Source: Saprospiraceae bacterium
GTDB taxonomy: Bacteria; Bacteroidota; Bacteroidia; Chitinophagales; Saprospiraceae
Assembly (NCBI GenBank): GCA_041752395.1
Contig: JBGSWN010000121.1
Span: 912 to 64,911, forward strand
Direction of reading: 5' to 3'
Length of the DNA: 64,000 nt
Positions 5,008-43,369 of the stretch are shown piece by piece. The position numbers were made by a program, and so were the translations under genes. How positions within the stretch are numbered: position 1 is the stretch's first letter; each line of letters begins with the position of its first letter. Below the pieces are notes generated by a model. That model saw nothing but the letters and a program-made list of their open reading frames with translations. It was not told the DNA's origin and did not search any database.

Positions 5008-7182
5008 TTATTTTGTAACTACCAAACGCTCCGTGTGAACTTGGTTGCCAACTTTCATTTTCACCAAGTACATGCCAGCAGCCATGTCGCTCAGTTCAAA
5101 TGTGTGGTTGATAGCGGAAGTTTTACCGAAGCTAGCATTGGCTACAACCTGGCCTTCGAGATTAACCATTTCAACTGTTGCATCAACAACTTGTGCGAAG
5201 CTAGCAGTCAGCACAGAAACGCTGGAAGCTGGATTTGGCGTAAGGCCGAATGAAGTCAGTGATGCGATATCTTCAACATTGGAAGTATTTTCAATCACTA
5301 CGTCAAGGCTTTGGGTACAGCCAATCTTGTCAGAAACTGTAAGTGTGTAGGTGCCAGGTGCCAGGCCACTGATGCTTGGAGTGGTTGCTCCATTGCTCCA
5401 AAGATAAGTGTAGCCGCCAAAACCATAGGTGCTGGACGGAGGTGTGAGGTCAACTGCACCATTGCTGCCATTTGAAGACGGTGTAGCCGCAGCCACTGCA
5501 CTAAATGATGCTGGGCAATTAACATCAACCTGCGTGCTGTTCACGTTCAAAACTTCACCTGTTGCATTGTCAATTATCATAACAACTGCATGCATGTTGA
5601 ATGGATTCCAATCTGTATTGAAGTTAGATACAACATATTCTTTTTCAGCAATATCATCCGCCACAACATTGGCTGGAACGCTGCCAGCAGTACCAGCCCA
5701 ACCACCAAGGATCGCACGACCAACATGGTTGTAAACCATGTCAGCTGCAGGAACAGTAGCAGGAAGTGCATCCCAATCGCTGCCGAAGCCAGGAATTGGA
5801 TCAGTTGGTGCAGCTGCGCCAGCATAGTAGTTGGTTTGTGCGTAGCCGGAACCTGTACCCGTTACATTATCCTCCGTAAGCACCACATTGAAGCGGTAGT
5901 CAATGTTCTCCAATTGAGTCACAAACTCAGCACTTGCATTGATAGTGGCTGTTTTAGTTGCAACATCAATTGAGGCTGTAACTTCGGGCGCAAGAGGTGC
6001 TATCCTGGCAAGGTAGTCTGGCAAGATATCTTCAAGATCAGATGGATCCCAAACAGCGTTGCGGTCAACAATAACACCGGGATATCCAGTAAAGCCAGGG
6101 AAATCGCCAACGCCATTATCATAGGCGGTTACGGCCATTGGGTCAGCGTTGTGAACGGCGATACCTACAAAATCATCTGGGTAGTTTTCAGTCATGAAGT
6201 CCATCCACTCCGTACCACGTGGGCACCAGCCGCACCATGTGCCTGTACCTTCTTCTGCTAGCATTTTCTTGGAAGGAATGTAGGAAACACCGGATACCAC
6301 GCCAGACTGTTGGTTATTGGTGTCGTCTGCATCAGCAGCACCATTTGGATTTGCTGCCCACAAATCAAAATTGTAGGTAATGGCGTCTGGCAAAGAAAGT
6401 TGGTCAGAGTGAACAAAGTTGTATTTGCCAAGGAAAGGAACGCTGATACCAGTCACGTTGTCCGTGTAGGTATTTGTTCCATCAGTCCAAGCAATATCCA
6501 CGGCAGTCAAGGTTTCAGCACCGTAGTTGGTGATTTCACCTGAAATTTCCACGGTTGTGCCAGAAAGTTTGAAGCGAGGAGCTTGAATCCTAGAAACGGC
6601 GACATCGTGGCTAGCTGGAGCAAATACAGTGACATTGTCAACAACAAATCCAAAAAGCCAACCGCCACCATCATTGTAACGGAATGCAACCCTTACGTTG
6701 TTCATGCCTGCGTAGGCGCTAAGATCTACAAGGTAGCCTTGTTGCCAGCCGCTGCCGTCACCGGTCAGTTCAACTACATCTTCCCAAAGACCGAAATTTT
6801 GGGAAACAGCAATATAGGCATGCTCCGCTACGCCTTGGTAAACCCCAGCAGCGTAAAACATGTCAAACTTCATTGCAACAGCAGCCGCATTTGTAAAATC
6901 AAAGGATGGCATAATGAGCAGGTCGTTCGATTTGTTGCAGTTGCAACCGTCATCGTTGGTGCCCGCTGCTTTGCCTCCATTGTCTGGCACTGGGAATGAG
7001 CCGCTTGAAAGTACACTTGCAGCACCAAACTTGAAGCCACCATCTGTGGCAGCAGTTTGTTGAGTCCATCCAAAAGGTGCTGTCCCGTTGGTGCCTTCGA
7101 AATCCTGCGTTAGAAATGTGGTTTGCGCATTTGCTGAAAATGCACAAACAGTTAAAAATAAAAGTGTCAAAATCTTCTTCAT
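5008..7182 (-). CDS. T9SS-sorted surface protein with thioredoxin-like WCGWCP region and SprB-type repeat
   Basis: Signal peptide MKKILTLLFLTVCAFSANAQ. The centre carries EGTGTWCGWCPRGTEWMDF (CxxC). YTYLWSNGATTPSISGLAPGTYTLTVSDKIGC is a SprB-like repeat. The C-terminus LTPNPASSVSVL...AGMYLVKMKVGNQVHTERLVVTK is a type A sorting domain. Confidence 0.8.
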   Translation of the reverse strand: MKKILTLLFLTVCAFSANAQTTFLTQDFEGTNGTAPFGWTQQTAATDGGFKFGAASVLSSGSFPVPDNGGKAAGTNDDGCNCNKSNDLLIMPSFDFTNAAAVAMKFDMFYAAGVYQGVAEHAYIAVSQNFGLWEDVVELTGDGSGWQQGYLVDLSAYAGMNNVRVAFRYNDGGGWLFGFVVDNVTVFAPASHDVAVSRIQAPRFKLSGTTVEISGEITNYGAETLTAVDIAWTDGTNTYTDNVTGISVPFLGKYNFVHSDQLSLPDAITYNFDLWAANPNGAADADDTNNQQSGVVSGVSYIPSKKMLAEEGTGTWCGWCPRGTEWMDFMTENYPDDFVGIAVHNADPMAVTAYDNGVGDFPGFTGYPGVIVDRNAVWDPSDLEDILPDYLARIAPLAPEVTASIDVATKTATINASAEFVTQLENIDYRFNVVLTEDNVTGTGSGYAQTNYYAGAAAPTDPIPGFGSDWDALPATVPAADMVYNHVGRAILGGWAGTAGSVPANVVADDIAEKEYVVSNFNTDWNPFNMHAVVMIIDNATGEVLNVNSTQVDVNCPASFSAVAAATPSSNGSNGAVDLTPPSSTYGFGGYTYLWSNGATTPSISGLAPGTYTLTVSDKIGCTQSLDVVIENTSNVEDIASLTSFGLTPNPASSVSVLTASFAQVVDATVEMVNLEGQVVANASFGKTSAINHTFELSDMAAGMYLVKMKVGNQVHTERLVVTK

Positions 7183-8085: not shown

Positions 8086-8156
8086 AGGTCGATAGCGGAT
8101 TCGAACCGCTGTACGAGGTTTTGCAGACCTCTGCCTAACCACTCGGCCAACCGACC
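8086..8156 (-). tRNA. tRNA-Cys: tRNA-Cys (anticodon GCA)
   Basis: The reverse complement is GGTCGGTTGGCCGAGTGGTTAGGCAGAGGTCTGCAAAACCTCGTACAGCGGTTCGAATCCGCTATCGACCT. I folded it by hand. It has a 7-bp acceptor stem (one G-U), a GCC/GGC D stem and a GAGGT/ACCTC anticodon stem with loop CTGCAAA. The T arm is AGCGG-TTCGAAT-CCGCT and the discriminator is U. CCA is not encoded. Confidence 0.93.
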
Positions 8157-8410
8157 ATTTTTTTGAGAAGGGAATTTCAAAGTTTCAAAAGCCTTAACGC
8201 TCTCAAAAGGAACAAGGTTTCAAATCCTTGGTTTTTACTTCAAAATATCCATTTCAAATACGCTTCCTTAAAAGCGGACGCAAATGTAAGGACTTTTTTT
8301 AAATCATGTCCAGCACTAGCTGCAAAACAGGAGCATTTTTTACAAACAGCGATTTATTTTGGATGGAGAAAATGATGGCTGCAAGGGTTAAGTGCTTGTT
8401 TTACAGACAC

Positions 8411-9421
8411 TTAAAGGCTCTCCTCGATAGTTGGTAGAGTTTTCCTCACTTCGATTTCTTTCGGAAGCATTACATAAAATGTTGTTCCCATATTCGCCTC
8501 AGATTTGTACCAAATATCCCCGTTGTGTATTTTTATTATCTTTTTGCAAATGGCCAAACCCATGCCCGTGCCTGGCCTTTCCAGGTGGCTGATGCGCTGA
8601 AACGGCATGAACGCCTTTTCCTGAAATCCCTCATCAAGTCCAAGTCCGTTGTCCGACACGGTGATTTGCCAATATCCTTCCCTTTCCTCGGCACTTATGG
8701 CTATTTCAATTGGCGCATCTCCCCTGAATTTTATGGCATTTGCCAGTAAGTTTTGAAACAACTGAAGCATGCCTGTCCGATGGCCCGTAATAGTTGGCAA
8801 ATCGGCGCAATCAATCCTAGCCTGGGCTTCGCTGATTTCCGCATTGAGGTTTTGTTTCACCAAATCAATCACTTCGTTTAGGCAAATACGCTCAAACTCC
8901 CTGGATTTATTGATGCCAGAATATTCAAGGAGGTCCCGAATTATCTCGTTCATGTGGCTTGCCCCTTTCACGATATAATCAATGAATTCGTTGGCTTCAG
9001 CATCTAGCTGCGGGGAATAGCGCCGCCGCAAAAGCCCAGCATAGCTTGCAATGGTGCGCAGTGGGCTTTTCAGGTCGTGTGAGGCGATGTAGGAGAATTG
9101 CTCAAGCTCGGCATACGATTTTTCGAGCATGTGGAGCTGCTCAGATAGCTTGTCTGATTGTTCCTCTACCAGCTGTTTTTGAAACTGTAGCTCATGGTTG
9201 GCTTCTACTATTTCTTTTTGCCGAAGGTGAAGTTCCTCAATTGTTCGGTTCAGCAGGTTCACCATGATGGACTTGTCCTTAATGGTGCGCTTCACCTGAA
9301 AATCCATGCGTGCCACCTCCTTCTTGAACCGCTCCACAAGCTGCAGCAGCCCTGCTTTCTCAGACTCGGAAGCGTCCAACGCCTGAATCCTCATTTGGAA
9401 AGCCTGGATTGCATTTTCCAT
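8411..9421 (-). CDS. Sensor histidine kinase (cytoplasmic, coiled-coil N-terminus, HisKA + HATPase_c)
   Basis: H-box FSYIASHDLKSPLRTI, N-box NLLANAIKF, G1 DNGLGLD and G2 GTGMGLAICKKII. No transmembrane segment. Confidence 0.9.
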   Translation of the reverse strand: MENAIQAFQMRIQALDASESEKAGLLQLVERFKKEVARMDFQVKRTIKDKSIMVNLLNRTIEELHLRQKEIVEANHELQFQKQLVEEQSDKLSEQLHMLEKSYAELEQFSYIASHDLKSPLRTIASYAGLLRRRYSPQLDAEANEFIDYIVKGASHMNEIIRDLLEYSGINKSREFERICLNEVIDLVKQNLNAEISEAQARIDCADLPTITGHRTGMLQLFQNLLANAIKFRGDAPIEIAISAEEREGYWQITVSDNGLGLDEGFQEKAFMPFQRISHLERPGTGMGLAICKKIIKIHNGDIWYKSEANMGTTFYVMLPKEIEVRKTLPTIEESL

Positions 9422-9457
9422 ATTGAGTTGTTTGTTCTGTGGTTAGAATTTATATGG

Positions 9458-9700
9458 TTAAAAAGGGGAACTTGCCCAGCTGCGTTCTTTCAGCACCACG
9501 AGCGAACAGGTTTCATTGTGAAACTCGCAAACACCGTTTTTTGCGTTCCCAATTTCACCGTAAGTAAAAAACCCAATCATCGGTTTTTTCCAGAAATCGT
9601 AGATGCCCTTCACCTCGTCCTCGATAAGTGGCCCTAAAGCGGCATGGCGTCCTTTGCAGGAAAAAAGAATCAGCGCATCCGCCGCTGCCGCTTGCGCTTT
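9458..9700 (-). other. In-frame continuation of the FIST gene after its TGA (80 codons encoding the conserved FIST_C end)
   Basis: The same frame as ORF 9701..10600 reads KAQAAAADALILFSCKGRHAALGPLIEDEVKGIYDFWKKPMIGFFTYGEIGNAKNGVCEFHNETCSLVVLKERSWASSPF, then TAA at 9460-9458. I checked every codon in 9461-9700 and found no stop. Confidence 0.8.
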
Positions 9701-10600
9701 TCATTTCCCAAACTCCCCAACCGTCTGGTCAATGACCTCGAAGCCTGGTGCAATGGAAAACCGGAACTTGTCGCCTCCAGCCAGCACGAGTGCCCCATTT
9801 TCTTTCAGGCTCATCAATGGAGCCCGGAGTACGGCAGACCCGTCCGGCTGCATGATCTGGAGCGGGTACTGTGCACTGATGTCGCTCACCTGGTTCTCCG
9901 AATTGGTGTTGTTGAAATACCCAAAATACTTGATGAAGGCATTGATGGCAGGTTCGTCATTTATTGTATAAACGATGTTTCCCTCGGCATGAGTGATCGT
10001 ATTTTCCATGCCTACGCCTTCCCAGCCGCTGGTGGCAAGGCCCTTAAGCTCGACCTTCTCCATATCAAATGCCAAAATAGCTATCCCATTATCCGTCACG
10101 GATTTGTCCGAAATGGCATAGGCAGCCTTTAGCTGAAGGTCATCCGCTGCCAGCCCACTGAATATCGGCGCCTCGTGCCCTATGCCAGCCTTCAGGCCAT
10201 AAACGATTTGTTCGGCATCAACGGAAACGCCGCCCGACATGACCAAAAGCGCAGGATTTTTAAAGCGCCTGACAGCATCTTCCCCAAGTTTCTTGCAGGT
10301 GGCATAAGGGTTGGTGCCTTCATAATCTTTCATGAAAACGCTATAATAATCCTTGTTGATTTCAAACAACAAACCAGTAACGATGCCGTCATGAACATTG
10401 TCATTCATTATCTCACCTGCCGTGGAAGCGCCAACCATGTCAATTCCCAGCTTGCAGAACAAGGCGGAAACCCCTGACATTTCAAAATGGATGGAACAAA
10501 AAACAATGGCCAGGTTGGGCTTGAAACCCGCCCCTGAAAGTGCTGCGATTTCCGTCGAAATGCCAGCCTCCGATTGAGCTATGAAAGTCTTGACTTGCAT
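9701..10600 (-). CDS. FIST-domain signal-sensing protein, ORF ends at an apparently premature in-frame TGA
   Basis: MQVKTFIAQSEAGISTEIAALSGAGFKPNLAIVFCSIHFE...VGASTAGEI matches the FIST_N pattern. A full-length protein of about 380 aa is restored if TGA 9703-9701 is read through (see the finding). Confidence 0.8.
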   Translation of the reverse strand: MQVKTFIAQSEAGISTEIAALSGAGFKPNLAIVFCSIHFEMSGVSALFCKLGIDMVGASTAGEIMNDNVHDGIVTGLLFEINKDYYSVFMKDYEGTNPYATCKKLGEDAVRRFKNPALLVMSGGVSVDAEQIVYGLKAGIGHEAPIFSGLAADDLQLKAAYAISDKSVTDNGIAILAFDMEKVELKGLATSGWEGVGMENTITHAEGNIVYTINDEPAINAFIKYFGYFNNTNSENQVSDISAQYPLQIMQPDGSAVLRAPLMSLKENGALVLAGGDKFRFSIAPGFEVIDQTVGEFGK

Positions 10601-10750
10601 CTAAGATTTTTAATAGTGATAAGAACCAGTTTGTAATTTTTCAAATTATAGGAATTGAAAAGGGAGGACCAGCCAGCGGAAGGGGAAAACAAACTTGATA
10701 GCGAACGAACCTTTGCCAAGGTCAATATTTCAAAAATAGCTCCAAAAAAA

Positions 10751-12505
10751 TCATCGAATCAACAAGACTGTGCCGCGCTTCTCGGTGCGCTTTCCATTGG
10801 CTTGATCAACTTTGATGATGTAAGCGTAAAGCCCTTGGGCTAAGGGCTTGCCGTTTTTTTGGCCATACCAACCCTTGTCAGGATCTTTCGTCCTAAAAAC
10901 CTCTTGCCCGTAGCGGTCGAAAATCTGCATTTCGTAACTGGCAAGGTCGCCCAGCACGATGAGCGGTTTGAACTCCTGGTTGAATCCCTCAGGCACGAAT
11001 GCGTTCGGGGCGAAAATGCGGGCAGCTTGAAAAACGCAGGCTACGTTGGAGCGGCTCTCCACGGCAACGGCCTGGCCATTTTGCCCAACAGCGTTTGACT
11101 GCGCCACCACGAAGTAGCAGGCCTGCGCCTCTTCAATATTGGTGGGGTCGTAGTTGTGCTGGTAGCTTGTCGCACTGCTGGCCGCCATGTCCAGTACGCT
11201 CGTCGTACCACCCACTGTTTTGTACAAGGTGTAGGAAGTAGCGCTCGTATTTTCAAAGTCAAAAGCCGTCCAGTCAAGTTGGTTTATGTTGCCGGGAAGT
11301 GGGGTCGCTGTGAGGTAAATTGTACTGCCATAGTTCGTCACCAGCGTAGAATCACACAGGTCCAAGGTTTGTATTTTATAAAAAACCTTTCCATTTTCAG
11401 CATCGCCACTGGCATCCGTGTAAGTGTTCGATGCTGGGAGCGGCAAGGTCGCCGCCTCCACTTCAATCGGCTGATAATCAGCGTTTTGGTCGCTCCGCAA
11501 TATTTGATATTCGACTAATTCTGCCAGCGGGTTCCATTCCCAATTCAGGTCCACGTCGCCATTGTTTTTAACGGAAACATTCAACAGCACCATTCCATCA
11601 GCCGACTGCACCACGTCCACTTGCAGGCAAACCTGGTTCGACTTGGCCACCGCTCCCGTCACTGCCTCTACCGCCCGCACCTCGAAGCAATAGGTCGCAC
11701 CATCCACCAAATTTCCCACCTCAAAACTCCCAGCGCTTGTGCCCGCATCAGCGACCGTCGCCAGCGCTGCTCCATTGATCCCAGCCCAAATTTGTTGCTC
11801 CGCAATGCCGTTTGTCCAGCCCACGTAATTGTTCCATGTCAGTTTCACCGACTGGTTGCAAGGAATCGGCTCCGCCTCAACAAAGATGCTCGTATGCTTC
11901 ATGTCAAAGATGCTCGTATTGCCGCAGGGGTCAAGCGCATTTACGTAATAGGACTCCGGGCCAATATTGGGGTCGGCAGCGAGGTCGGTATAGGTATTGC
12001 CGCTGAACACCGTGTCCACGGGAATAACCCCGATGCCCGTTTGCCGATAAATGATGTACCCGGTCACCTCTGGCGAAGGGCTGGGCTGCCAAGTCACCAC
12101 CGCCTGCCCGCCTTCCACGGATACCGTTTGGATGGGGGAAACCACTGGCGGGCGGTTGTCCAAAGTATCAGAAGTGATGGCCATTTGGCCGGGGCAATTG
12201 AAATTGCTGGTCAGGTAAAAAAACCACTGCTGCCCGCTGGGGTTGACGAAGGCGTAAAAATCCTGCGCCTGGTTCGTCACCGAGCCTTGCGGTGTGAAGG
12301 GGCCATTTGGGTTTTGGCTCGCCCAAACATCGTAGCTCACGAAGGGTCCGCAGCCATTCACGGGTAGGTCGAAAAACAACGTGTCACCTCGAACGCAACG
12401 CAGGTCGGGCGGTAGGATTTGTGCCTCCATTTTACCTGTAAAAACAAAGCCTAGGGCGAGCACGGTAAATATATTTCTCAAAAAAATCCAATTGTTGTTT
12501 TTCAT
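10751..12505 (-). CDS. Gliding-motility-associated / T9SS type B C-terminal domain protein with FN3-like repeats
   Basis: Start taken at MKNNNWIFLRNIFTVLALGFVF; an alternative ATG lies at 12526. The C-terminus AFVPEGFNQEFKPLIV...YEMQIFDRYGQEVFRTKD...GWYGQKNGKPLAQGLYAYIIKV...RGTVLLIR is the CHU_C/type B sorting domain. Confidence 0.85.
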   Translation of the reverse strand: MKNNNWIFLRNIFTVLALGFVFTGKMEAQILPPDLRCVRGDTLFFDLPVNGCGPFVSYDVWASQNPNGPFTPQGSVTNQAQDFYAFVNPSGQQWFFYLTSNFNCPGQMAITSDTLDNRPPVVSPIQTVSVEGGQAVVTWQPSPSPEVTGYIIYRQTGIGVIPVDTVFSGNTYTDLAADPNIGPESYYVNALDPCGNTSIFDMKHTSIFVEAEPIPCNQSVKLTWNNYVGWTNGIAEQQIWAGINGAALATVADAGTSAGSFEVGNLVDGATYCFEVRAVEAVTGAVAKSNQVCLQVDVVQSADGMVLLNVSVKNNGDVDLNWEWNPLAELVEYQILRSDQNADYQPIEVEAATLPLPASNTYTDASGDAENGKVFYKIQTLDLCDSTLVTNYGSTIYLTATPLPGNINQLDWTAFDFENTSATSYTLYKTVGGTTSVLDMAASSATSYQHNYDPTNIEEAQACYFVVAQSNAVGQNGQAVAVESRSNVACVFQAARIFAPNAFVPEGFNQEFKPLIVLGDLASYEMQIFDRYGQEVFRTKDPDKGWYGQKNGKPLAQGLYAYIIKVDQANGKRTEKRGTVLLIR

Positions 12506-12532
12506 AAATATCTGATTTTCAATCATTTAAAA

Positions 12533-13285
12533 TCACTTCCCTAGCTCCCCTATTTCCAGTTTCTCCTTGAATTTTTGCTCAAAATCTGCCATGCTGTACA
12601 CAGCCTTCAGGCGGTATTCGATTCGACGCTGGTCACTCACGTCTTTTTTGAAATAAACGAGGCCCAGCTTTTTGGCATAAACCTCGGTGCCGCCAAATTC
12701 CAGTTCCAAATGCCCCTCTACCTCTTGGTCAACGAGTTCCCGGGTGTTGAATTTCACGGCAGACACATTTTTTCCATCAAAAACAACGGTCGTATCGCTG
12801 TCGTATTGTCGGTTCCTGACCAAGGTGATACTCGACGAATCGCCCGACTGCCGCCAGTGCAGCGAGGAAAGCAACACGTTGCCCAACGGTTTCACCTCGA
12901 AGGGGAAGACGTTCGCCGCTTCGATTTCCGCCTCGATTTGCTGGCTTTTCCCTTCGGCGTCCGTTTCATAAACGTAGAAATCGTTGAGCAACATCCCGTT
13001 GTTCACCCGCTCCTCCCGCACGAATTGGTCTGGTTCAAACGACGGATTGTAGGACATCCCCACCAGAAAGGCACTCCCATCTTTCAGCACGGAGCGATAG
13101 TACCAGTAAACTGGCGGGTCGTTCTCTTCGTGGACGGGCTCGTACTCGTAAACCATGCCGTCTTGAAGGTCAATCAGCGGGTAGTAATATTCTTCAATGT
13201 TTTTAAGGCCGTTTTGTTCCTTGTTTGCGCAAGCAAAAAAGAAAACCGAGAAAACTGCCAAGCAAAAAATGACTGGATACTTCAT
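12533..13285 (-). CDS. Lipoprotein, hypothetical
   Basis: MKYPVIFCLAVFSVFFFACANKEQ contains a lipobox. The track ORF starts one codon earlier at TTG 13288. Its stop lies 7-28 nt before the next gene start, so the two are probably co-transcribed. Confidence 0.7.
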   Translation of the reverse strand: MKYPVIFCLAVFSVFFFACANKEQNGLKNIEEYYYPLIDLQDGMVYEYEPVHEENDPPVYWYYRSVLKDGSAFLVGMSYNPSFEPDQFVREERVNNGMLLNDFYVYETDAEGKSQQIEAEIEAANVFPFEVKPLGNVLLSSLHWRQSGDSSSITLVRNRQYDSDTTVVFDGKNVSAVKFNTRELVDQEVEGHLELEFGGTEVYAKKLGLVYFKKDVSDQRRIEYRLKAVYSMADFEQKFKEKLEIGELGK

Positions 13286-13320
13286 CAAATAACTATTTCA
13301 GAACTGGATTGGTGCTGCTT

Positions 13321-13355
13321 GAAACTCGAAACTCACCGCTCGAAACTCACTCCTT
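13321..13355. repeat. Five-unit heptad array (GAAACTC type) overlapping the rsmI stop codon
   Basis: GAAACTC GAAACTC ACCGCTC GAAACTC ACTCCTT. The rsmI stop (TCA on the plus strand) is at 13347-13349. Confidence 0.85.
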
Positions 13356-14012
13356 CCCTGCCACCACTACCACAATCTCGCCCTTCACGGTTTTTTCCTT
13401 GTAAAACGCCGACAATTGCACCAGCGTGTCCGTGCGGATTTCTTCGTGCATTTTTGTCAGCTCCCGTGCAACGCAGGCTTGCCGCTCCGGCCCGCAGACT
13501 TCGGCCAGTTGGTCCAAGCACTTGACTAGGCGGTTCGGCGATTCGTAGAGAATGAAGGTGCAGGGCTGTTCTGCGAGGTATTTCAAGCGGGTTTGGCGGC
13601 CTTTTTTATGGGGCAAAAAACCCTCGAAAAAGAACTTGTCGCAAGGCAGCCCGCTCGCCGCCAATGCAGGCACGAAGGCCGTCGGCCCCGGCAAACACTC
13701 CACCCGCACGCCTTGCCGCACGCATTCCCGCACCAACAGAAACCCGGGGTCGGAAATGCCCGGTGTGCCAGCATCGGAGGCAAGCGCAAAAGTCGCCCCG
13801 CCCTTGAGTTGCTGCACGATATTGGCCGTCACCGAATGCTCGTTGAAGGCATGAAAAGCGGAAACGGGCGTCTGGATTTGGAAGTGGTCGAGCAGGCGTT
13901 TCGTTACCCTCGTGTCCTCGGCCCATACCCTGTCCACTTCCTTGAGGATGCGCAGCGCCCGGAGCGTGATGTCTTCCAAATTGCCGATGGGGGTAGGGAT
14001 GAGGTATAGCAT
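13347..14012 (-). CDS. rsmI: 16S rRNA (cytidine1402-2'-O)-methyltransferase
   Basis: MLYLIPTPIGNLEDITLRALRILKEVDRVWAEDTRVTKRLLDHFQI is the canonical RsmI N-terminus. Confidence 0.92.
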   Translation of the reverse strand: MLYLIPTPIGNLEDITLRALRILKEVDRVWAEDTRVTKRLLDHFQIQTPVSAFHAFNEHSVTANIVQQLKGGATFALASDAGTPGISDPGFLLVRECVRQGVRVECLPGPTAFVPALAASGLPCDKFFFEGFLPHKKGRQTRLKYLAEQPCTFILYESPNRLVKCLDQLAEVCGPERQACVARELTKMHEEIRTDTLVQLSAFYKEKTVKGEIVVVVAGKE

Positions 14013-14017
14013 TTGAA

Positions 14018-14095
14018 GAATTGAGAATTGAGAATTGAAAATGGAGAATTGGCATCACGAGCATTTTCCATTTTCCATTTTCAACTCTCCATTAT
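14018..14095. repeat. Inverted pair of five-unit heptad arrays filling the purS-rsmI spacer
   Basis: GAATTGA x3 AAATGGA GAATTGG (14018-14052), then the spacer CATCACGA, then GCATTTT CCATTTT CCATTTT CAACTCT CCATTAT (14061-14095). The second arm overlaps the purS stop. Confidence 0.85.
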
Positions 14096-14332
14096 TGTAA
14101 AATGGTAGGTTTCCATGATCAGGTTTGCGAGCAGTTTCTTGCAGGCGCCGTCAACTTTGCTGGAGGCTTCTTCCTTGCTGACCGCCTCGATTTCCATGCG
14201 AATATGCTTGCCAATGCGGATGTCCTCGACGCCTTCAATATGCAGGTTGCTCATGCTCTGCTGCACGGCCTTGCCTTGTGGATCGAGGAGTTCCCTGTGT
14301 GGCATGATGTCTATTTCTGCGGTGTATTTCAT
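14081..14332 (-). CDS. purS: Phosphoribosylformylglycinamidine synthase subunit PurS
   Basis: 83 aa. MKYTAEIDIMPHRELLDPQGKAVQQSMSNLHIEGVEDIRIGKHIRMEIEA matches the PurS pattern. Confidence 0.9.
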   Translation of the reverse strand: MKYTAEIDIMPHRELLDPQGKAVQQSMSNLHIEGVEDIRIGKHIRMEIEAVSKEEASSKVDGACKKLLANLIMETYHFTIMES

Positions 14333-14368
14333 TGGATGGTGATTGGTGACTGGTGATTAGGGATTGGG
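14331..14368. repeat. Heptad array (GGTGATT type) abutting the purS start codon
   Basis: ATTGGAT GGTGATT GGTGACT GGTGATT AGGGATT GGG. The first unit includes the complement of the purS ATG. Confidence 0.85.
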
Positions 14369-14384
14369 AGATACCGACAGCCGA

Positions 14385-15104
14385 TCACGAGTTCCGACTA
14401 ACTTTCAGGTAAACAAATAACGAGAACAGCACGTGGCCAACGATGATGAACGGGAAGGCTGCCTCCCGCATGACTGCCAACAGCCCAACTGCAAAGGCGG
14501 CAAAGGTAAACCGAATCTCATTGCCCGCCCAAGCGAGGTTTTTGAATTTTAGGCTAAACATCGGCAGTCCGGCCACCATCAGCAGGCAAAGTACGGGGAT
14601 GTTGAGATAGAGGAAAACGGGGTTCGTGACGATTTTGCCCAAGCCAAAAGAATCGAAATGGTAGATGAGCAGCAGGCCGATGGCGTAGATGGCGCAGGAA
14701 GGCGTCGGCATCCCGATGAAATTCTCGGTTTGGCGGGTATCAATATTGAAATTGGCCAAGCGGATGGCGGCGAAAAGCGTGATGAGAAAAGCGGGCGAAG
14801 CAGCCAGCGTGAGTTGAATCGGCAGCACATCGTGGCCTGCGAGGCCCTTCACCAGCAGCATGTAAATCACAGCGCCGGGCGCTACCCCAAATGAAACCAT
14901 GTCCGCCAGCGAATCAAGCTGCTGCCCGAGCGGCGACTTCACCTTGAGCATACGGGCGCAGGCGCCGTCGAGGTAGTCGGCGATACCACTGCCCAAGCTG
15001 AACCAGAATGCCTGTACGAACTGCCCGTACAGCACACTGGCTATTGCGCAGCAACCAAAAAACAGGTTGAGCAAGGTGATAAAATTCGGAATGTGTCTTT
15101 TCAT
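14385..15104 (-). CDS. pssA: CDP-diacylglycerol--serine O-phosphatidyltransferase (CDP-alcohol phosphatidyltransferase family)
   Basis: Start at MKRHIPNFITLLNLFFG. The motif DYLDGACARMLKVKSPLGQQLDSLAD matches DGx2ARx8Gx3Dx3D. The protein has multiple transmembrane helices. Confidence 0.88.
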   Translation of the reverse strand: MKRHIPNFITLLNLFFGCCAIASVLYGQFVQAFWFSLGSGIADYLDGACARMLKVKSPLGQQLDSLADMVSFGVAPGAVIYMLLVKGLAGHDVLPIQLTLAASPAFLITLFAAIRLANFNIDTRQTENFIGMPTPSCAIYAIGLLLIYHFDSFGLGKIVTNPVFLYLNIPVLCLLMVAGLPMFSLKFKNLAWAGNEIRFTFAAFAVGLLAVMREAAFPFIIVGHVLFSLFVYLKVSRNS

Positions 15105-15378
15105 GCCCAATTTGCGGTCTAAGCAGTTTCTTGAAAAACCCAACCCCAAAGGTCGGCCTAGGCGTCACTCATTTTGGGCAAAAGTAATATTTTGCCATTT
15201 ACCCAAAGCATAAAGCAAAAATTAGGAATGTCGCAGATTGGCAGCAAACCGTTCTTAACTTAGTGATAACTGACTTATGCCGTCAAATCTGTACTTTTGC
15301 CGCCCTTAATTGCGTTCCAAAAAAAATTCACACCGCCGACTCAGTCGGTTTTTCACTAAAAAAAAGAGACAGACCGTT

Positions 15379-18126
15379 ATGAAACAACGCTTCACAATTT
15401 TGCTCTGTTCGGCTTTCCTTTGCTGCGCAAACAGCCTGTTCGCACAACCCTCCAACAACGAATGTGCCAACGCACAGCCACTAAGCAACCTCAACAACTG
15501 GTGCTCTGCCGCCGCTGGCTTCACCAACGTGGGCGCCACATTGAGCAACGTCACAAACCCTGGTTGTTTTCCTTCGGGAAATGCGGACGTTTGGTTCTCC
15601 TTTGTTGCGCAAGCCAACACCGTCAACATTCGGGTCGTCGGCGCTACGGGCGGAAATACCCCCCCGGGCGGCTCCCTCATGGAACCACAGTTTGCACTTT
15701 ACAGCGGCACTTGCAACGCCCTGACCCTTGTGCAGTGCGCCTCCGATGCCTTCGGCCTCAACATCGCCGAGACCTTTGCCGGGCCGCTCACCGTCGGCCA
15801 AACCTACTATATTCGGGTGGATGCACGAAACAACAACACGGGCACTTTCAAGCTCTGTATCAACAACTACAATGCCGTGCCAGAACTCAGCGGCGACTGC
15901 CCCACTGGCGTGATTCTTTGCGACAAATCACCCTTCAGTGTGGAGCTGGCAGTGGGCGCTGGCAGTGACCCGAACGAGGTGGACCCCAGCACTTGCATTA
16001 ACGCCGAAATCGCTTGCTCTTGGTACCGTTGGACCTGCAAAGATGCCGGAACCCTCACATTTACCATCACGCCAAATAATTCCACAGACGATATTGACTT
16101 TGCCGTTTACGAACTGCCGGGTGGCCTCGGCGATTGTGCAAACAAGGAAGTCGTGCGTTGCGAAGCAGCCGGAGAGAATGTTGGGTCACCTTTTCCTGAT
16201 TGGCAAAATTGCTCTGGTCCTACAGGCTTGGCACTTTCTGAAAATGATGTCACTGAAGTCCCGGGCTGTCCAGTTGGGCAGAACAATTTCGTGGCGGCAC
16301 TCGATATGGTCGTGGGCAAAAGCTACGCCCTCGTCATCAATAATTTTAGCGAATCCGGCAATGGCTTTTCCATTGAGTTTGGTGGCACAGGCACTTTCCT
16401 CGGCCCTACTGCCGATTTTACCGTTGCTCCGCAAACGATTTGCCAGAACTCCACCATCACTTTCACCGATAATTCCAACTCTCTTGACGCCATCACTTTC
16501 TGGCAATGGAACTTCGGCATTGGCGCCAGCCCCGCCACCGCTACTGGCAAAGGCCCGCACACCGTGACCTACAACACACCCGGCACAAAGTCCGTCGCAC
16601 TGACCATCACCAATGAGGAAGGCTGCCAAGTGACGGACATCGAAACCATCAACGTGCTGCCGCTGCCGGAGGTTGACCCGACCCTGCTCGACGACTATTG
16701 CGGACCCGACGACAACACGGGCGCCGTGATTTTGTCGCCTTCCGGCGATGGACAACCGTACACCTACGACTGGACTGGAACCGGCGTTTTTACCAATGAC
16801 AGCTCGCTGGTTGACTTGGCTTCGGGCGATTATACCGTCGTCGTGCAGACCGCCAACGGCTGCACCCAGAGCTTTGATTTCACGGTGGAAGAAGGCTTGA
16901 GCCTCGCTGCTGGCGTTGACCCAGTGTCGCCGCCCACCTGCAACGGCGACTCGGATGGCAGCATTTCCATCACCATCCAAATCGCAAACCCGCCAGTTAC
17001 TTTCGACTTCGGCAACGGCCCACAATCGAGCAATACCTTTAGCGGAATCCCCGCTGGAACTTACAACGTTCAGGTCGTGGATGGCCAAGGCTGCGCTGGT
17101 AATTTCACCATCGAAGTAGTGGATTTTCCACCGTTGGACTTAGGCATTGCCCCAATTGACATCAGTTGTTTTGGGGCAAATGACGGCACCATTTCCATCC
17201 TGCCCACGGGTGGGGCAGGTGGCTATTCCTATCTTTGGAGCAATGGTGCCACCACTTCCAGCATCTCAGACCTTGCCGCAGGCAACTACTCCGTCACCGT
17301 CACGGATGAGAATGGTTGCTCCGCAACCGCCGAGGCCGACATTATTGAACCGGAGCCCTTAACGGCTACCCTAGAAACCGTGGACGTGATTTGTTTTGGG
17401 GATGAAACGGGCGTGATCACCGTCACTGCCACAGGTGGCACACCGCCATTCGAGTACAGTTCCAACGGCACTGATTTTCAAACTGACCCTGCCCTCATCA
17501 ACCTCGGCGGCGGCACCTACGACGTGGTGGTGCAGGACAGTAGGGGCTGCACGTTCACCATCCCCGGCACCATCAACCAGCCGCCGCCCATCATCGTGGA
17601 GGCTGGTAACGACCAGACGATTGACCTTGGCTACTCCGCCAATTTGGTTGCCACTGTTTTACCTCCAACGCTTCCTGTGACGCTGAGTTGGGTGCCCTCG
17701 GAGTCGCTGAGCTGCGCCGACTGCCTGCGCCCGGAAGCTACCCCGTACCTCACCACGACTTACACCCTCACCGCCACCGACGAGAATGGCTGCACAGGCA
17801 GCGACTCGGTGACGGTCTTCGTAATTTTGGTGCGCCCGGTGTACATCCCGAACGTCTTTTCGCCGAACGGCGACGGCCTCAACGATTTCTTCACCGTCTT
17901 CGGGGGCAAAGCCGCCAAAACCATCAGAACGCTCAAGGTCTTCGACCGCTGGGGCGACAATGTCTTTGTGGGAACCGACCTCCCGCTGAACGACGAGCCG
18001 CTCGGCTGGGATGGTGTTTTTCGGGGAAAGCTGATGGACACGGGCGTGTTCGCCTACCTTGCCCAAGTGGAGTTTGTGGATGGCGTGGTGGTGCTCTTCA
18101 AAGGTGACGTGATGATTATTAGGTGA
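15379..18126 (+). CDS. Large surface protein with PKD domain, SprB repeats and T9SS type B (gliding-motility) C-terminal domain
   Basis: Signal peptide MKQRFTILLCSAFLCCANSLFAQ. SprB-type repeats include CFGANDGTISILPTGGAGGYSYLWSNGATTSSISDLAAGNYSVTVTDENGC. The C-terminus reads VYIPNVFSPNGDGLNDFFTVFGG...KVFDRWGDNVF...GVFAYLAQVEF...KGDVMIIR. Confidence 0.88.
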   Translation: MKQRFTILLCSAFLCCANSLFAQPSNNECANAQPLSNLNNWCSAAAGFTNVGATLSNVTNPGCFPSGNADVWFSFVAQANTVNIRVVGATGGNTPPGGSLMEPQFALYSGTCNALTLVQCASDAFGLNIAETFAGPLTVGQTYYIRVDARNNNTGTFKLCINNYNAVPELSGDCPTGVILCDKSPFSVELAVGAGSDPNEVDPSTCINAEIACSWYRWTCKDAGTLTFTITPNNSTDDIDFAVYELPGGLGDCANKEVVRCEAAGENVGSPFPDWQNCSGPTGLALSENDVTEVPGCPVGQNNFVAALDMVVGKSYALVINNFSESGNGFSIEFGGTGTFLGPTADFTVAPQTICQNSTITFTDNSNSLDAITFWQWNFGIGASPATATGKGPHTVTYNTPGTKSVALTITNEEGCQVTDIETINVLPLPEVDPTLLDDYCGPDDNTGAVILSPSGDGQPYTYDWTGTGVFTNDSSLVDLASGDYTVVVQTANGCTQSFDFTVEEGLSLAAGVDPVSPPTCNGDSDGSISITIQIANPPVTFDFGNGPQSSNTFSGIPAGTYNVQVVDGQGCAGNFTIEVVDFPPLDLGIAPIDISCFGANDGTISILPTGGAGGYSYLWSNGATTSSISDLAAGNYSVTVTDENGCSATAEADIIEPEPLTATLETVDVICFGDETGVITVTATGGTPPFEYSSNGTDFQTDPALINLGGGTYDVVVQDSRGCTFTIPGTINQPPPIIVEAGNDQTIDLGYSANLVATVLPPTLPVTLSWVPSESLSCADCLRPEATPYLTTTYTLTATDENGCTGSDSVTVFVILVRPVYIPNVFSPNGDGLNDFFTVFGGKAAKTIRTLKVFDRWGDNVFVGTDLPLNDEPLGWDGVFRGKLMDTGVFAYLAQVEFVDGVVVLFKGDVMIIR

Positions 18127-18129
18127 GGG

Positions 18130-18265
18130 GATTTACGATTTTACGACTGACGATTTACGACTGGGCACACAGCTCAAATGGAAAAGGGTAGGAAGCGCTT
18201 TGCTTCGTACCCTTTTTCGTTATTGGTTGCGGACTCAATCGTAAATCCAAAATCGTAAATCGTCA
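18130..18265. repeat. Inverted GATTTAC-type repeat arms bracketing a bidirectional terminator
   Basis: The left arm is GATTTACGATTTTACGACTGACGATTTACGAC (18130-18161). The right arm is CAATCGTAAATCCAAAATCGTAAATCGTCA (18236-18265). Both share TGACGATTTACGA or its complement. Confidence 0.8.
18182..18217. terminator. Bidirectional rho-independent terminator between convergent genes
   Basis: AAAAGGGTAGGAAGC-gcttt-GCTTCGTACCCTTTTT, with A and T runs on either side. Confidence 0.8.
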
Positions 18266-18266
18266 T

Positions 18267-18896
18267 TCATTTCACTTCACAAGCAAGCAACTGCTCCTCC
18301 TTCCCGTCCACTGTTTTCACAAAGCCCTCCAGTTGGTCGCCAATTTTCACAGGCCCAACCCCGGCAGGCGTGCCTGTGAAGATGAGGTCGCCTTGCAGCA
18401 GCTTGAAATATTGGGAAACATAGGTGATGATGTTTCCGAAGGAAAAAAGCACATCACGGGTGTTGCCGTGCTGCACGGTTTCGCCATTTTTTTTCAAAAA
18501 AAACTCAATGTTTCCGCCACTGTTGACCCGGTGCAGGGGAACAAACTTGCCCAGCACCGCCGAATTGTCGAAGCCCTTGGCAATCTCCCATGGGTGGCCT
18601 TTTTTCTTGAGTTCCTCCTGCACGTCACGAGCGGTGAAGTCAATGCCTAGCGCCACTTCCTCGTAGTAGCTGTCGGCAAATTCCGGCTGGACGGCCTTTC
18701 CGTTTTTGCAGATTTTCAGCACCACCTCGCATTCGTAGTGGAGGTCTTTCGTGAAATCTGGGTAGTAAAACGGCTTCTCGTTCACCAGCAGCGCCGATGG
18801 TGGCTTCATGAACACGACGGGTTTGCCGACTGGCACGGGGTTATTGAGTTCTTTGGCGTGGTCGGCGTAATTTCTACCAATGCAGATTATTTTCAT
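18267..18896 (-). CDS. Fumarylacetoacetate hydrolase (FAH) family protein
   Basis: Start at MKIICIGRNYADHAKELNNPVPVGKPVVFMKPPSALL. GHPWEIAKGFDNSAVLG and LQGDLIFTGTPAGVGPV are typical of the FAH family. Confidence 0.88.
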   Translation of the reverse strand: MKIICIGRNYADHAKELNNPVPVGKPVVFMKPPSALLVNEKPFYYPDFTKDLHYECEVVLKICKNGKAVQPEFADSYYEEVALGIDFTARDVQEELKKKGHPWEIAKGFDNSAVLGKFVPLHRVNSGGNIEFFLKKNGETVQHGNTRDVLFSFGNIITYVSQYFKLLQGDLIFTGTPAGVGPVKIGDQLEGFVKTVDGKEEQLLACEVK

Positions 18897-19070
18897 ATTG
18901 CGGTGATTGGTGATTGGTGATATTAAGAAAAACTTTTTCGACGCTGATTTTTTAAGATTTTTATGATGAATTATGTTGCTGGACGTACCGTCCAGCATAA
19001 AAAATCATAAAAATCAGCGTCTTTCAGCGTCAAAAAACATGCGTCAGATTTTTTCTTAACGCCACCAATT
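18895..19070. repeat. Nested palindromic intergenic element (heptads GGTGATT x3, an ~82-nt imperfect hairpin and an outer inverted repeat)
   Basis: GGTGATT GGTGATT GGTGATA lies at 18902-18922. The hairpin spans 18940-19021 (GACGCTGATTTTT...TGCTGGACG-tac-CGTCCAGCA...AAAAATCAGCGTC). The outer arms are GATTGGTGATATTAAGAAAAA and TTTTTCTTAACGCCACCAATT. Confidence 0.8.
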
Positions 19071-20733: not shown

Positions 20734-20851
20734 AAAAATGAGTGGATGACAGGTTGAGTGAATGGGCGAAGGTATTAAAAACAGAGAAAGCCCCTTATCC
20801 AACTTTCGTTGGACAGGAGCTTTTAGATTTTAGATGCTGCTTGGCCGGGGC

Positions 20852-21049
20852 TTATTCCTGGTCTTCCTTGGATTTTACCAGAATCTTGCCTTTGTAGCGC
20901 ATGTTTCCCTCACTATCCGTGTAGGCATGGTGGAAAATATGCGTTTCGCCAGTGGCTTGACACTTGGCAATTGTTGGCATTGCGGCACGGTCGTGAGCCC
21001 GGCGGGTGCGGGTACGCTGCTTCGAATGTTTATTTCTAGGATTTGGCAT
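20852..21049 (-). CDS. rpmF: 50S ribosomal protein L32
   Basis: MPNPRNKHSKQRTRTRRAHDRAAMPTIAKCQATGETHIFHHA, 65 aa, downstream of yceD as in most bacteria. Confidence 0.93.
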   Translation of the reverse strand: MPNPRNKHSKQRTRTRRAHDRAAMPTIAKCQATGETHIFHHAYTDSEGNMRYKGKILVKSKEDQE

Positions 21050-21061
21050 CGCTATTTGTAT

Positions 21062-21148
21062 TTAAGACTTTAGAAATTAGACGTTAGATTATAGACGGAA
21101 TCGGTGGAACATCATCTAATGTCTTTTGTCTAATATCTACGGTCTGTT
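21062..21148. repeat. Inverted pair of five-unit heptad arrays (TTAGAC type) filling the yceD-rpmF spacer
   Basis: TTAAGAC TTTAGAA ATTAGAC GTTAGAT TATAGAC, then a 17-nt spacer, then ATCTAAT GTCTTTT GTCTAAT ATCTACG GTCTGTT. Confidence 0.85.
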
Positions 21149-29032: not shown

Positions 29033-29064
29033 AATTGCCTGCCACCCCAAGGCAACAGGCAATT
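29033..29064 (-). terminator. Terminator-like hairpin 3' of the molybdoenzyme large-subunit gene
   Basis: AATTGCCTG (29033-29041) pairs with CAGGCAATT (29056-29064). The adjacent tandem repeat CAATTTCCT CAATTTCCT AATTTCT spans 29060-29084. Confidence 0.55.
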
Positions 29065-29090
29065 TCCTCAATTTCCTAATTTCTGTTAAA

Positions 29091-31343: not shown

Positions 31344-31350
31344 TTAATTT

Positions 31351-31423
31351 GTCATTGGGGTCATTGGCGTCCTTGGTCATTGTGGACGGAGCACAATTAC
31401 CAATGACTCCAATGACGAATGAT
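31351..31423. repeat. Inverted GTCATTGG-type repeat arms forming an intercistronic hairpin between the two molybdoenzyme subunit genes
   Basis: 31351-31367 (GTCATTGGGGTCATTGG) pairs with 31400-31416 (CCAATGACTCCAATGAC) at 16 of 17 positions. The arms abut the downstream ATG (31343) and overlap the upstream stop (31423-31425). Confidence 0.85.
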
Positions 31424-40735: not shown

Positions 40736-40814
40736 AGTTTTGCATTGAAGCTGTTTTTTGATGTATTATTAACGATATAAGATTTATGATTTGCATGAGC
40801 CTTATATTTATTCA

Positions 40815-41642: not shown

Positions 41643-41741
41643 TTGAAAATAGCATATTTGTCATTTTGTTGAACATCAGCAACTACTACTTTTGGGTATC
41701 AATTGTCAATACGATTTCCTACAATAAGCTTTCTAAGGAAA

Positions 41742-42284: not shown

Positions 42285-42306
42285 ATTTTGCAAGAATCTT
42301 TCTCTT

Positions 42307-42875: not shown

Positions 42876-43160
42876 TTACTCACCAGTAACGATTGTTTCG
42901 TAAGTCACAATGATATTCAACACATTTGTGCTTTTGATATCAACTGTAGAGATTTTGGTGATGCCACCGTTTTTTGCCGCAGCGCGAATACTCGCATCTT
43001 GGTTAAAAAACAATATGCCTAAGTAGCCAGTGGCTTTTGCCATACCTACCTTGCTCCCAACGGGATTGCTCGTTGCGTTTACTGGCAATGTTAATGCACA
43101 GCTTGAAACCATTCCTGCTACCAATAGCAGTGCTACGAAATTTTTGATTTTTTTAATCAT
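42876..43160 (-). CDS. TRL-like small lipoprotein
   Basis: MIKKIKNFVALLLVAGMVSSCALT contains a lipobox. GSKVGMAKATGYLGILFFNQDASIRAAAKNGGITKISTVD...TGE matches the TRL family pattern as I remember it. Confidence 0.65.
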   Translation of the reverse strand: MIKKIKNFVALLLVAGMVSSCALTLPVNATSNPVGSKVGMAKATGYLGILFFNQDASIRAAAKNGGITKISTVDIKSTNVLNIIVTYETIVTGE

Positions 43161-43369
43161 TTTAATGTAGTTTTAATTTCTTACTCGTATGGCTTTTCTG
43201 AATTCGCCCCGTTTTTAAAGTGGTTGCTGGACTCCACTTTTGTCATTATCAAAACAATAACGGCAGCAAATATCACCAATTTTTTTTAATCGAAAACAAG
43301 GTGATTTCTGAACGGCAATTCTAATTCAATTTTAATGCAAGTCACAGCTGAAAACAGAACTTCCAACCC

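Follow-up and report, generated by a model that had tools for sequence, protein, structure and literature searches.

Heptanucleotide tandem arrays at gene boundaries of a Saprospiraceae bacterium: fast-evolving simple sequence repeats with a possible effect on expression

It has been known since 1990 that bacteria contain tandem repeats of seven-nucleotide units, and the present paper describes a set of such arrays that abut start and stop codons in a stretch of 64,000 nt from a Saprospiraceae bacterium (assembly GCA_041752395.1, contig JBGSWN010000121.1, positions 912 to 64,911; hereafter the window). The short tandemly repeated repetitive (STRR) sequences of cyanobacteria, the subject of the work of Mazel et al. 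in 1990, are reportedly tandem heptanucleotides dispersed in non-coding DNA and made of a few lineage-typical units. STRR sequences are known from heterocystous cyanobacteria, with the units CCCCAGT, TTGGTCA and CAACAGT, all of which are absent from the window. The repetitive extragenic palindromic (REP) sequences and bacterial interspersed mosaic elements (BIMEs) of Proteobacteria form short stem-loops in the spacers of co-directional or convergent genes and may influence how stable the mRNA is; REPs have a genome-wide consensus, are GC-rich and not internally periodic, and are mobilised by REP-associated tyrosine transposases (RAYT). The arrays of the window, unlike REP/BIME sequences, share no REP-type consensus and are composed of AT-rich units (mode 2 G+C per 7 nt), so that an earlier statement that they are not GC-rich REP hairpins holds. 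They are not CRISPR arrays either, as was also stated, since the 7-nt units are contiguous and the 23-50 nt repeats with unique spacers are lacking.

Heptamers are the commonest class of long simple sequence repeats (SSRs) in prokaryotes and polymerase slippage has been proposed as their origin, as this work is relayed in later articles (Mrazek, 2007, via PMC4679880 and PMC4692102). The GGGAATC repeats of Xanthomonas and the GGGGAYT repeats of Nostoc/Anabaena consist of about 4 units, are 89-93% intergenic and lie near the ends of open reading frames (ORFs) (Rehm et al., 2015, PMC4692102). Each Xanthomonas genome contains 70-75 convergent (G-rich first) inverted array pairs that are capable of forming stem-loops, and arrays of close species vary in length and sequence (PMC4692102). 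The arrays of the window are like these SSRs in copy number, intergenic bias, ORF proximity, convergent pairing and interspecies length variation, and their units GGTGATT, GCGGATT, TGGGATT and AGGGATT each differ from GGGGATT at one position. They are unlike them in that no unit dominates (within 64 kb there are eight or more different ones), in not being prone to G-quadruplex (G4) formation and in belonging to another phylum, and because their arms bridge stop and start codons in a lineage poor in Shine-Dalgarno (SD) sequences. TAACTGA repeats were reported from Beggiatoaceae, cyanobacteria and five Bacteroidetes, mostly in intergenic positions and with 2-6 copies (up to 43) (MacGregor, 2015, PMC4679880). 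They lie a few nucleotides upstream of start codons in the 'forward' orientation, Flexibacter included, the corresponding spacers of close relatives are shorter and repeat-free, and further heptamer repeats occur in spacers of Gramella, Aequorivita and Elizabethkingia (PMC4679880). That work dealt with one unit and one inverted set, whereas in the window pairs dominate and TAACTGA doublets are absent; a search of the window for doublets of TAACTGA, GGGAATC, GGGGATT and STRR1-3 found none. In Haemophilus influenzae, the (ATCTTTC)n repeat in the 5' untranslated region of hmw1A is transcribed and pairs with a G-rich arm into a long hairpin, and cleavage by RNase III determines how strongly HMW1A is expressed and how the repeat number changes (Rapun-Araiz et al., 2025, PMC12721329). 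Of the known systems, it is the one best suited as an experimental model of how the paired arrays of the window, known here from sequence and predicted folds, might act. It differs in being a single virulence locus with at least 11 repeats and proven phase variation, and its polarity is reversed, with the repeat arm 5' and the G-rich arm 3'.

On balance, and with modest confidence, the arrays of the window are regarded here as slippage-generated, fast-evolving heptanucleotide SSRs of the STRR, GGGAATC, TAACTGA and hmw type that would also tune expression. The opinion that no described class has such an architecture has to be abandoned, because heptameric SSRs had already been reported (PMC4692102, PMC4679880, PMC12721329). 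The arrays are not a new element class; what is new is the coexistence of many units, within the known kind of heptameric SSR.

The periodicity itself is real. A scan of the window over periods 4-18, with dinucleotide shuffles or Markov sequences as controls, found 6 strict period-7 arrays and none in the dinucleotide shuffles; relaxed thresholds gave 8-11 arrays, compared with 0.1-0.5 in the controls. Among the scanned periods, 7 was enriched together with 14 (2 x 7), and no others. Tandem Repeats Finder (TRF) independently reported period-7 arrays at 648, 992, 14017, 14062, 14337, 18237, 18902, 47683 and 47814. The existence of period-7 tandem arrays far above chance (6-11 against 0-0.5 in controls), as asserted in a preliminary description of the window, is thus confirmed. 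That description had listed 20 intervals, which were scored site by site against 1.28 Mb of simulated sequence. Ten of them lie individually beyond anything in the simulation (14018-14052, 14061-14095, 14331-14365, 18236-18265, 21062-21096, 47682-47716, 47813-47847, 56849-56883, 641-668 and 992-1026), and four do not have period 7. The interval 13321-13355 has a low simple-match score, yet contains three exact in-phase GAAACTC copies, an arrangement with 0 occurrences in 20 simulated windows, and the actual core of 18895-18929 is a perfect array of 2.9 copies at 18902-18921. In the intervals 18130-18161, 21114-21148 and 56772-56806 the periodicity is weak, but they are genuine because each is the inverted partner of a stronger array, with 71-94% complementarity. 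The four exceptions are 31351-31385 and 29060-29084, both of period 9, 58478-58495, of period 8, and 45314-45348, where no period-7 signal was detected, the top score is at period 9 and two TTGTTGGCT copies 14 nt apart can be seen by eye. The supposed fixed layout of five units, with arm length at 35 nt, was a product of the reader's framing: trimmed arrays mostly have 3-4 units, with a tail to 11, and one arm reaches about 290 nt in a relative.

An independent Logan assembly (L081; here and below, L numbers denote loci of the comparison set) is 99.98% identical to positions 8108-18159 of the window with zero indels or gaps. The arrays between 13321 and 14365 are reproduced in it and are therefore no assembly artefact. 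The L081 contig breaks off within the array at 18130-18161.

The purS-rsmI region presents both forms in which the arrays occur. Four minus-strand genes follow one another here: pssA (14385-15149), purS (14081-14332; Pfam PurS, E = 2.3e-26), an rsmI-like methyltransferase gene (13347-14012; Pfam TP_methylase, E = 9e-33) and, downstream of rsmI, a hypothetical gene (12533-13285). The 68-nt purS-rsmI spacer is occupied by two opposed arrays. The CATTTTC array at 14061-14096 (minus; mRNA GAAAAUG; TRF 4.6 copies) covers the last purS codons and the stop codon (14081-14083) and constitutes the 5' arm of a predicted stem-loop, of which the GAATTGA array at 14016-14052 (minus; mRNA UCAAUUC; TRF 5.0 copies, 85%) constitutes the 3' arm. 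The inverted repeat measures 34 nt with 82% complementarity. The predicted stem (-24.9 kcal/mol, z = -3.75) holds the purS stop in its 5' arm, and between the GAATTGA array and the rsmI AUG at 14012 there remain 4 nt by the TRF limits or 10 nt by those of the predicted stem. The solitary GGTGATT array at 14337-14367 (minus; mRNA AAUCACC; TRF 4.4 copies), in the 52-nt pssA-purS spacer, is a G-poor leader that stops 4 nt before the purS AUG, and the predicted fold of this leader is weak (-9.1 kcal/mol, z = -1.55). At the other end of rsmI, a degenerate GAAACTC array (13321-13348, minus; mRNA GAGUUUC) overlaps the stop codon (13347-13349) and reaches into the 61-nt spacer before the ATG at 13285.

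Inverted pairs are present at seven places in the window, in agreement with the earlier account. In four co-directional paired spacers, including that of purS-rsmI, stems are predicted from stop to start with -22.6 to -41.9 kcal/mol and z = -3.6 to -5.0. Between yceD (stop at 21153) and rpmF (start at 21049), a minus-strand pair of TTAGAC-type and GTCTAAT-type units (21062-21148) gives an inverted repeat of 31 nt with 71% complementarity; the stem (-22.6 kcal/mol, z = -3.6) has a 5' arm from 7 nt past the stop and a 3' arm ending 14 nt before the AUG. The rpmF gene (L32), a 65-codon gene missing from the ORF list, lies at 20852-21049 on the minus strand directly downstream of yceD, and the plus-strand ORF 20834-21073 that overlaps it is spurious. 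A minus-strand pair of 9- and 7-nt units (GTCATTGGC-type; 31347-31420; TRF period 9) separates a 2Fe-2S subunit gene from a molybdopterin (MoCo) subunit gene (AUG 31343). Its inverted repeat is 25 nt long with 88% complementarity, and its stem (-31.7 kcal/mol, z = -5.0) runs from 7 nt past the stop to 7 nt before the AUG. The strongest of the four stems (-41.9 kcal/mol, z = -4.7) begins directly past the PhoD stop (56882-56884) and leaves 20 nt to the AUG of the following gene (56753); it is formed by AACTTTG/AATGGTG-type and CAAAGTT/CACCATT-type units (56770-56883, minus; 28 nt, 86% complementarity). These spacers confirm that arrays abut stop and start codons, as had been described. We infer the transcription of the paired arrays from the operon layout and TAnnTTTG motifs alone. 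In the wider comparison set described below, 13 of the 14 intergenic pairs whose arms are of opposite sign begin with the G-rich arm (four of them by just ±1), and two more pairs have no clear skew.

The convergent spacer 18127-18266 forms one long palindrome (-65.9 kcal/mol, z = -9.1, 149 nt folded). Its left arm is an ACGATTT array with one indel (18130-18163, plus; TRF period 14, 93%) just past the stop of a SprB/CHU_C gene (gene end 18126), and its right arm is an AAATCGT array (18237-18263, minus; ACGAUUU in the FAH mRNA; TRF 3.9 copies) that begins 3 nt past the FAH stop. Between the two arms lies a GC-rich hairpin (18177-18221; 20-nt inverted repeat, 85% complementarity) with A and T runs on its flanks, which looks like a bidirectional terminator. 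The form of an intrinsic terminator, a GC stem with a U run, coincides with no array in the window and is found in this inter-arm hairpin only. A consensus scan for sigma-70 promoters and terminators was uninformative on the arrays.

Solitary arrays, by contrast with the paired ones, form G-poor leaders of purS, FAH, murA and a ROK-family gene that end 0-8 nt before the AUG. The perfect GGTGATT array of 2.9 copies (18902-18921, minus; mRNA AAUCACC; TRF 100% identity) sits 5 nt upstream of the FAH-family start, which translation and the Pfam domain offset place at 18896, not 18998; this leader is predicted to be essentially unstructured (-0.8 kcal/mol, z = +1.1). The divergent ROK and murA leaders carry arrays that are 97% complementary to each other over 32 nt and 98 nt apart: GAATTGA/AAATTGA at 47683-47714 (minus; TRF period 7 at 87%, period 14 at 100%), the leader (UCAAUUU) that stops 8 nt before the ROK AUG at 47674, and TCAATTT x5 at 47813-47848 (plus; TRF 5.0 copies, 92%), which reaches right to the murA AUG at 47848-47850. 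A -7-box-like motif, TAGATTTG, is located upstream of the ROK-leader array (47728-47735, minus). For the FAH (18896), murA (47848) and nagB/PIG-L (45313) genes, the longest-ORF starts lie upstream of heptamer- or repeat-rich leaders, and Pfam offsets favour later ATGs. Certain units recur in the window: GAATTGA is found at 14017 and 47683/47813 and GGTGATT at both 14337 and 18902, and there are three occurrences of GCGGATT. The 14-nt super-repeats at 47682-47713 (100%) and 18135-18163 are higher-order repeats and therefore indicate tandem block duplication.

The wider occurrence of the arrays was surveyed in a comparison set of roughly 160 loci centred on rsmI, taken from genomes and metagenomes, which together measure 1.9 Mb and belong nearly all to Bacteroidota. 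Period 7 predominated in it, with 114 arrays, of which 91 are intergenic, though only 16% of the DNA is non-coding; the arrays are therefore a genuine family with a positional preference, as had been claimed. They are enriched at gene boundaries and are not copies of one dispersed repeat sequence. Intergenic positions also prevail in the smaller classes of period 8 (25 of 33 arrays) and period 11 (13 of 13), and arrays of periods 6, 9 and 12 are mostly coding. Their occurrence is patchy, with arrays at 39 of 146 loci and 9-10 per 20 kb at some gut and rumen Bacteroidales loci. Two arrays each were found in the cultivable species Aquirufa ecclesiirivi (L076) and Caecibacteroides pullorum (L044). 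The mode is 3-4 units per array and the maximum 11. About a quarter of the arrays have an inverted partner (29 reach at least 17 of 21 matches, compared with 6 in the control) and about 75% are solitary. Distances to starts and stops cluster at 0-20 nt, and 31 of 93 array-to-start distances are between -5 and +15 nt. A constant spacing or phase relative to the AUG, considered as a candidate signal, was not found in this set. The arrays closest to starts, up to 25 nt upstream, contain 7.4% G and 19.2% C (G<C in 34, G>C in 11). The idea of the G-free leader as a special signal was likewise dropped: ordinary leaders are also G-poor (12.9%), so that the G depletion is mostly a composition filter.

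Pairs of identical units across loci or genomes number 36 where 6.5 are expected from random intergenic heptamers, and 309 where 116 are expected if one mismatch is allowed. GCGGATT was found in at least four related genomes (window, L005, L162 and L163). The tetramers ATTG, AATT and TGAA are enriched 2-4-fold in units; the shared ATTG core that had been noticed holds for about half of the window units, but across Bacteroidota it is reduced to a 2.3-fold enrichment (18% vs 8%). TAnnTTTG motifs show no overall enrichment in the search made (46 against 37.5 expected) and were therefore used as local hints alone. At four gut/rumen Bacteroidales loci (L049, L054, L055 and L130) an array is situated just upstream of a TATCTTTG -7-box-like motif ahead of rsmI and not in the leader; these arrays would occupy the upstream promoter region. 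Telomere-like units (CCCTAAA/TTTAGGG, TTTTGGG) were observed in L029 (4772-4813), L057 (2431-2470) and L002 (578-995), probably by coincidence given the diversity of units.

The orthologous spacers reveal how fast the arrays turn over. Among relatives the purS-rsmI spacer may be as short as 8 nt or as long as 340 nt, and arrays are absent or made of other units, as is also seen from rsmI orthologues that bear arrays with differing units. The spacer has no array in L002, L030 and L083, where it measures 8, 9 and 12 nt. It is 43 nt long in L005, with AATCCGC units; the spacers of L007 (81 nt) and L012 (102 nt) are likewise filled with arrays, and that of L001 (108 nt) holds an inverted pair made of 8-nt units. 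In L082 (metagenome contig CXWJ01000501.1, about 5660-6000) it has grown to the extreme length of 340 nt, nearly all of it CTACTGC/CACTGC units of 6-7 nt, with a short, G-rich, complementary 5' arm of about 30 nt and another arm of about 290 nt. The array-free spacers of 8-12 nt beside the array-filled ones of 43-340 nt therefore indicate lineage-specific expansions of a short ancestral spacer. It also follows from the array-free spacers of relatives that the arrays are dispensable for rsmI expression.

Arrays also occur within a coding sequence (CDS). Two of the intervals noticed earlier, 641-668 and 992-1026, do fall in a CDS, though it is not the plus-strand ORF 482-1144 but the minus-strand gene of a UvrD/PcrA-like helicase that carries a PD-(D/E)XK domain at its C terminus (1-2562, running off the window start and so missing from the ORF list; full protein P0001, 1152 aa). 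The helicase matches an NCBI protein with 100% identity. Three GCGGATT/AATCCGC arrays (531-545, 641-667 and 992-1023, minus; TRF 100% identity) are in frame in this gene, where their translations, LRIADLGL, VIRNPP and NPQSAIRNPQS, are part of loops of variable length. One 7-nt unit gives a 7-residue peptide period after three units. Distant homologues have about 1046-1050 aa and the clade of the window protein 1101-1175 aa; the helicase has about 37 residues more than PcrA in a PDB alignment and about 100 additional low-complexity loop residues, which are array-encoded. The extra residues form four variable loops with array-encoded peptides (NPQSAIRNPQSAI, LRIADYGLR, PSSLIPH x6), and all indels between homologues of 85-94% identity fall in four hot spots that are the sites of the array peptides (e.g., NPQSAIR). 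At one site an inverted GCGGATT/AATCCGC pair is kept in homologues 72-82% identical to the window protein. Arrays are visible as such in the DNA of two relatives, among them a GGATTGC/CAATCCG inverted pair 90 nt apart. The insertions NPQSAIR and PSSLIPH are comparable to the tandem repeats of Borgs, which, as far as their description in PMC9879509 goes, evolve fast, occur between genes and in frame, and add disordered protein segments. In the Saprospiraceae metagenome-assembled genome (MAG) GCA_020848965.1, an ATTGCGG x5 array (L163, 997-1030) lies within the gene of a chorismate-binding enzyme (187-1485, minus), so that the favoured unit of the lineage invades further coding regions.

The proposed history of the arrays begins with a unit of 7 nt (sometimes 6, 8 or 9 nt) of which slipped-strand mispairing would have produced head-to-tail copies. 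Two-unit blocks may then have been duplicated again, which would give the 14-nt super-periods, and the inverted partner could have arisen from fold-back or template-switch copying or from parallel slippage in an existing hairpin; copy number would then drift fast. Hardly any arrays persist outside non-coding spacers, except in frame within protein loops that tolerate them, and next to starts the mRNA strand is the G-poor one, like Bacteroidota leaders generally. The arrays probably tune downstream expression, through unstructured leaders or through stop-to-start stems. Solitary arrays would supply G-poor, structure-free leaders up to the AUG, as in front of purS, FAH, murA and the ROK gene. 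Paired arrays would fold into imperfect stem-loops of 25-35 bp, with a G-rich 5' arm at or within about 10 nt past the stop and a G-poor 3' arm that ends 7-20 nt before the AUG. Such a stem could mask the downstream initiation region; a ribosome that terminates on the preceding cistron might open it, or RNase III might cut it, as happens in Haemophilus hmw. By gaining and losing units, an array would thus adjust expression like a dial, in an evolvable but dispensable way, and would not be an essential signal. A more ambitious proposal is that stop-to-start heptamer stem-loops are a widespread evolvable device that couples or gates adjacent cistrons in SD-poor Bacteroidota, the stem being opened by the terminating ribosome or cleaved by RNase III and its strength set by unit number, and that a shared, sequence-measuring process making 7-nt units favours G-rich-first pairs also in cyanobacteria, Xanthomonas and Beggiatoaceae; we give this proposal little credence.

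Several observations weigh against slippage-born arrays that tune expression. Arms that touch both stop and start are also expected if a hairpin merely grew in a former spacer of 8-20 nt. Folding gives no strand-specific advantage: of 29 co-directional spacers, 12 fold better as the sense strand and 17 as the antisense strand, and this lack of a sense-strand bias means that there is no G-U signature of selection on RNA. G-free arrays near starts (21 of 46) are about as frequent as the ~38% expected for heptamers drawn from leaders. Unit number is unchanged across three arrays in L081, the sole second assembly of the organism, and the genome and metagenome scans yielded no relative above 74% RsmI identity for a close-strain comparison of unit counts. 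Slippage, moreover, does not explain the preference for 7 nt or the recurrence of units (GCGGATT among them). Some of these points serve the view that the arrays are a pure mutational by-product, that is, neutral filler of slippage origin with no effect on expression, whose hairpins and G-poverty are side effects of composition and fold-back. The absent folding bias and the G-free frequency are in line with it, as are the functioning array-free spacers of relatives, the patchy occurrence (39 of 146 loci) and the arrays found upstream of -7-box-like motifs, past stops and in CDS loops. We nevertheless consider it unlikely, though worth serious attention. Translation initiation in Bacteroidetes relies on unstructured leaders, so a stem of 25-35 bp ending 7-20 nt before an AUG is unlikely to have no effect; the G-rich arm precedes the other in nearly all opposite-sign intergenic pairs, the inverted GCGGATT/AATCCGC pair has been retained in the helicase homologues, and a comparable heptamer hairpin controls expression in Haemophilus (PMC12721329). 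The opposite extreme, dedicated SD-independent leaders or enhancers in which a periodic, G-poor, CAAU-type sequence recruits the ribosome (e.g., via bS1), was among the hypotheses of the preliminary description and keeps weak support. It draws on the clustering of a third of the measured distances (31 of 93) around starts, the G-poor sense strand (34 vs 11), the essentially structure-free FAH and purS leaders, the sense-strand unit shared by the divergent ROK and murA leaders and a similar role suggested by MacGregor for TAACTGA repeats (PMC4679880). However, distance and phase to the AUG are not fixed, units vary widely among loci, the composition is accounted for by background leader bias, and relatives manage with array-free spacers of 8-12 nt at the same genes. 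Many arrays are of opposite sense, past stops, upstream of TAnnTTTG motifs or in CDS, and in paired spacers the supposed enhancer is predicted to be base-paired, so that this explanation appears quite improbable.

Two further hypotheses from the same source are disfavoured. If the arrays were iteron-like targets of a protein that binds DNA or RNA sequence-specifically and recognises units at 7-nt intervals, the recurrence of identical and near-identical units above random (36 vs 6.5, 309 vs 116), the existence of favoured lineage units such as GCGGATT in the window, L005, L162 and L163, and the enriched ATTG, AATT and TGAA tetramers would be accounted for. No single specificity fits the many different units of the window, though, and a spacing of 7 bp is out of phase with the DNA helix. 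The arrays stand in coding loops and dispensable spacers, scattered over 64 kb between housekeeping genes, no candidate gene for a binding protein is linked to them in the window, and the recurrent units often come from related gut Bacteroidales loci, where shared ancestry may inflate the count; such sites seem very improbable to us. Least credible of all, with only the slightest likelihood, are decayed MITEs (miniature inverted-repeat transposable elements) or other mobile palindromic elements with internally periodic terminal repeats. Inverted arms do flank 7-330 nt at the seven places, their presence or absence at orthologous sites resembles insertion, and arrays are also found within genes. 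But the inter-arm sequences are unique, with no second copy in the window or the ~160 loci, and so do not represent a MITE family. The arms have different units at different sites, they are unequally long, their length changing in whole-unit steps (about 30 and 290 nt in L082), about three quarters of the arrays are solitary, no shared termini are evident, and no transposase was detected among the ~20 window ORFs scanned, which are part of the window's ORFs.

The window has further features apart from the arrays. SprB/CHU_C genes for type-IX-secretion cargo mark it as DNA of Saprospiraceae-like Bacteroidota, and its closest RsmI relatives in the genome and metagenome scans are Saprospiraceae MAGs with 73-74% identity; exact-protein look-ups of PurS and MurA, made in search of close strains, returned no match. 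In an Rfam scan of the window, tRNA and the DUF805 motif alone reached the gathering threshold and no array family did so; at 13200-14500 nothing relevant appeared at E <= 1, merely sub-threshold look-alikes of miRNA precursors. The DUF805 RNA motif (82.6 bits, 43174-43242, minus) is a strong match upstream of a TRL-like gene (42876-43160, PF13146), with no DUF805 gene there. A 477-nt tandem repeat (36799-37660, 1.8 copies, 79% identity) within a 1929-aa ORF (34392-40181) presumably represents repeated domains of a large surface protein. The region 40791-42443 has a low GC content (42-45%), one of its two ORFs (40791-41642) passed the coding screen, weakly, and it may be foreign or fast-evolving DNA.

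Heptanucleotide arrays are thus a common but patchy phenomenon in Bacteroidota, with many units, stop-to-start hairpins and invasion of protein loops. They can mislead the calling of start codons, as the longest FAH, murA and nagB-like ORFs run through arrays, and they break assemblies, the contig end of L081 being an example. Several Bacteroidota are culturable and some are genetically tractable, and the tractable ones are therefore a practical place to ask whether such repeats tune translation without Shine-Dalgarno pairing.

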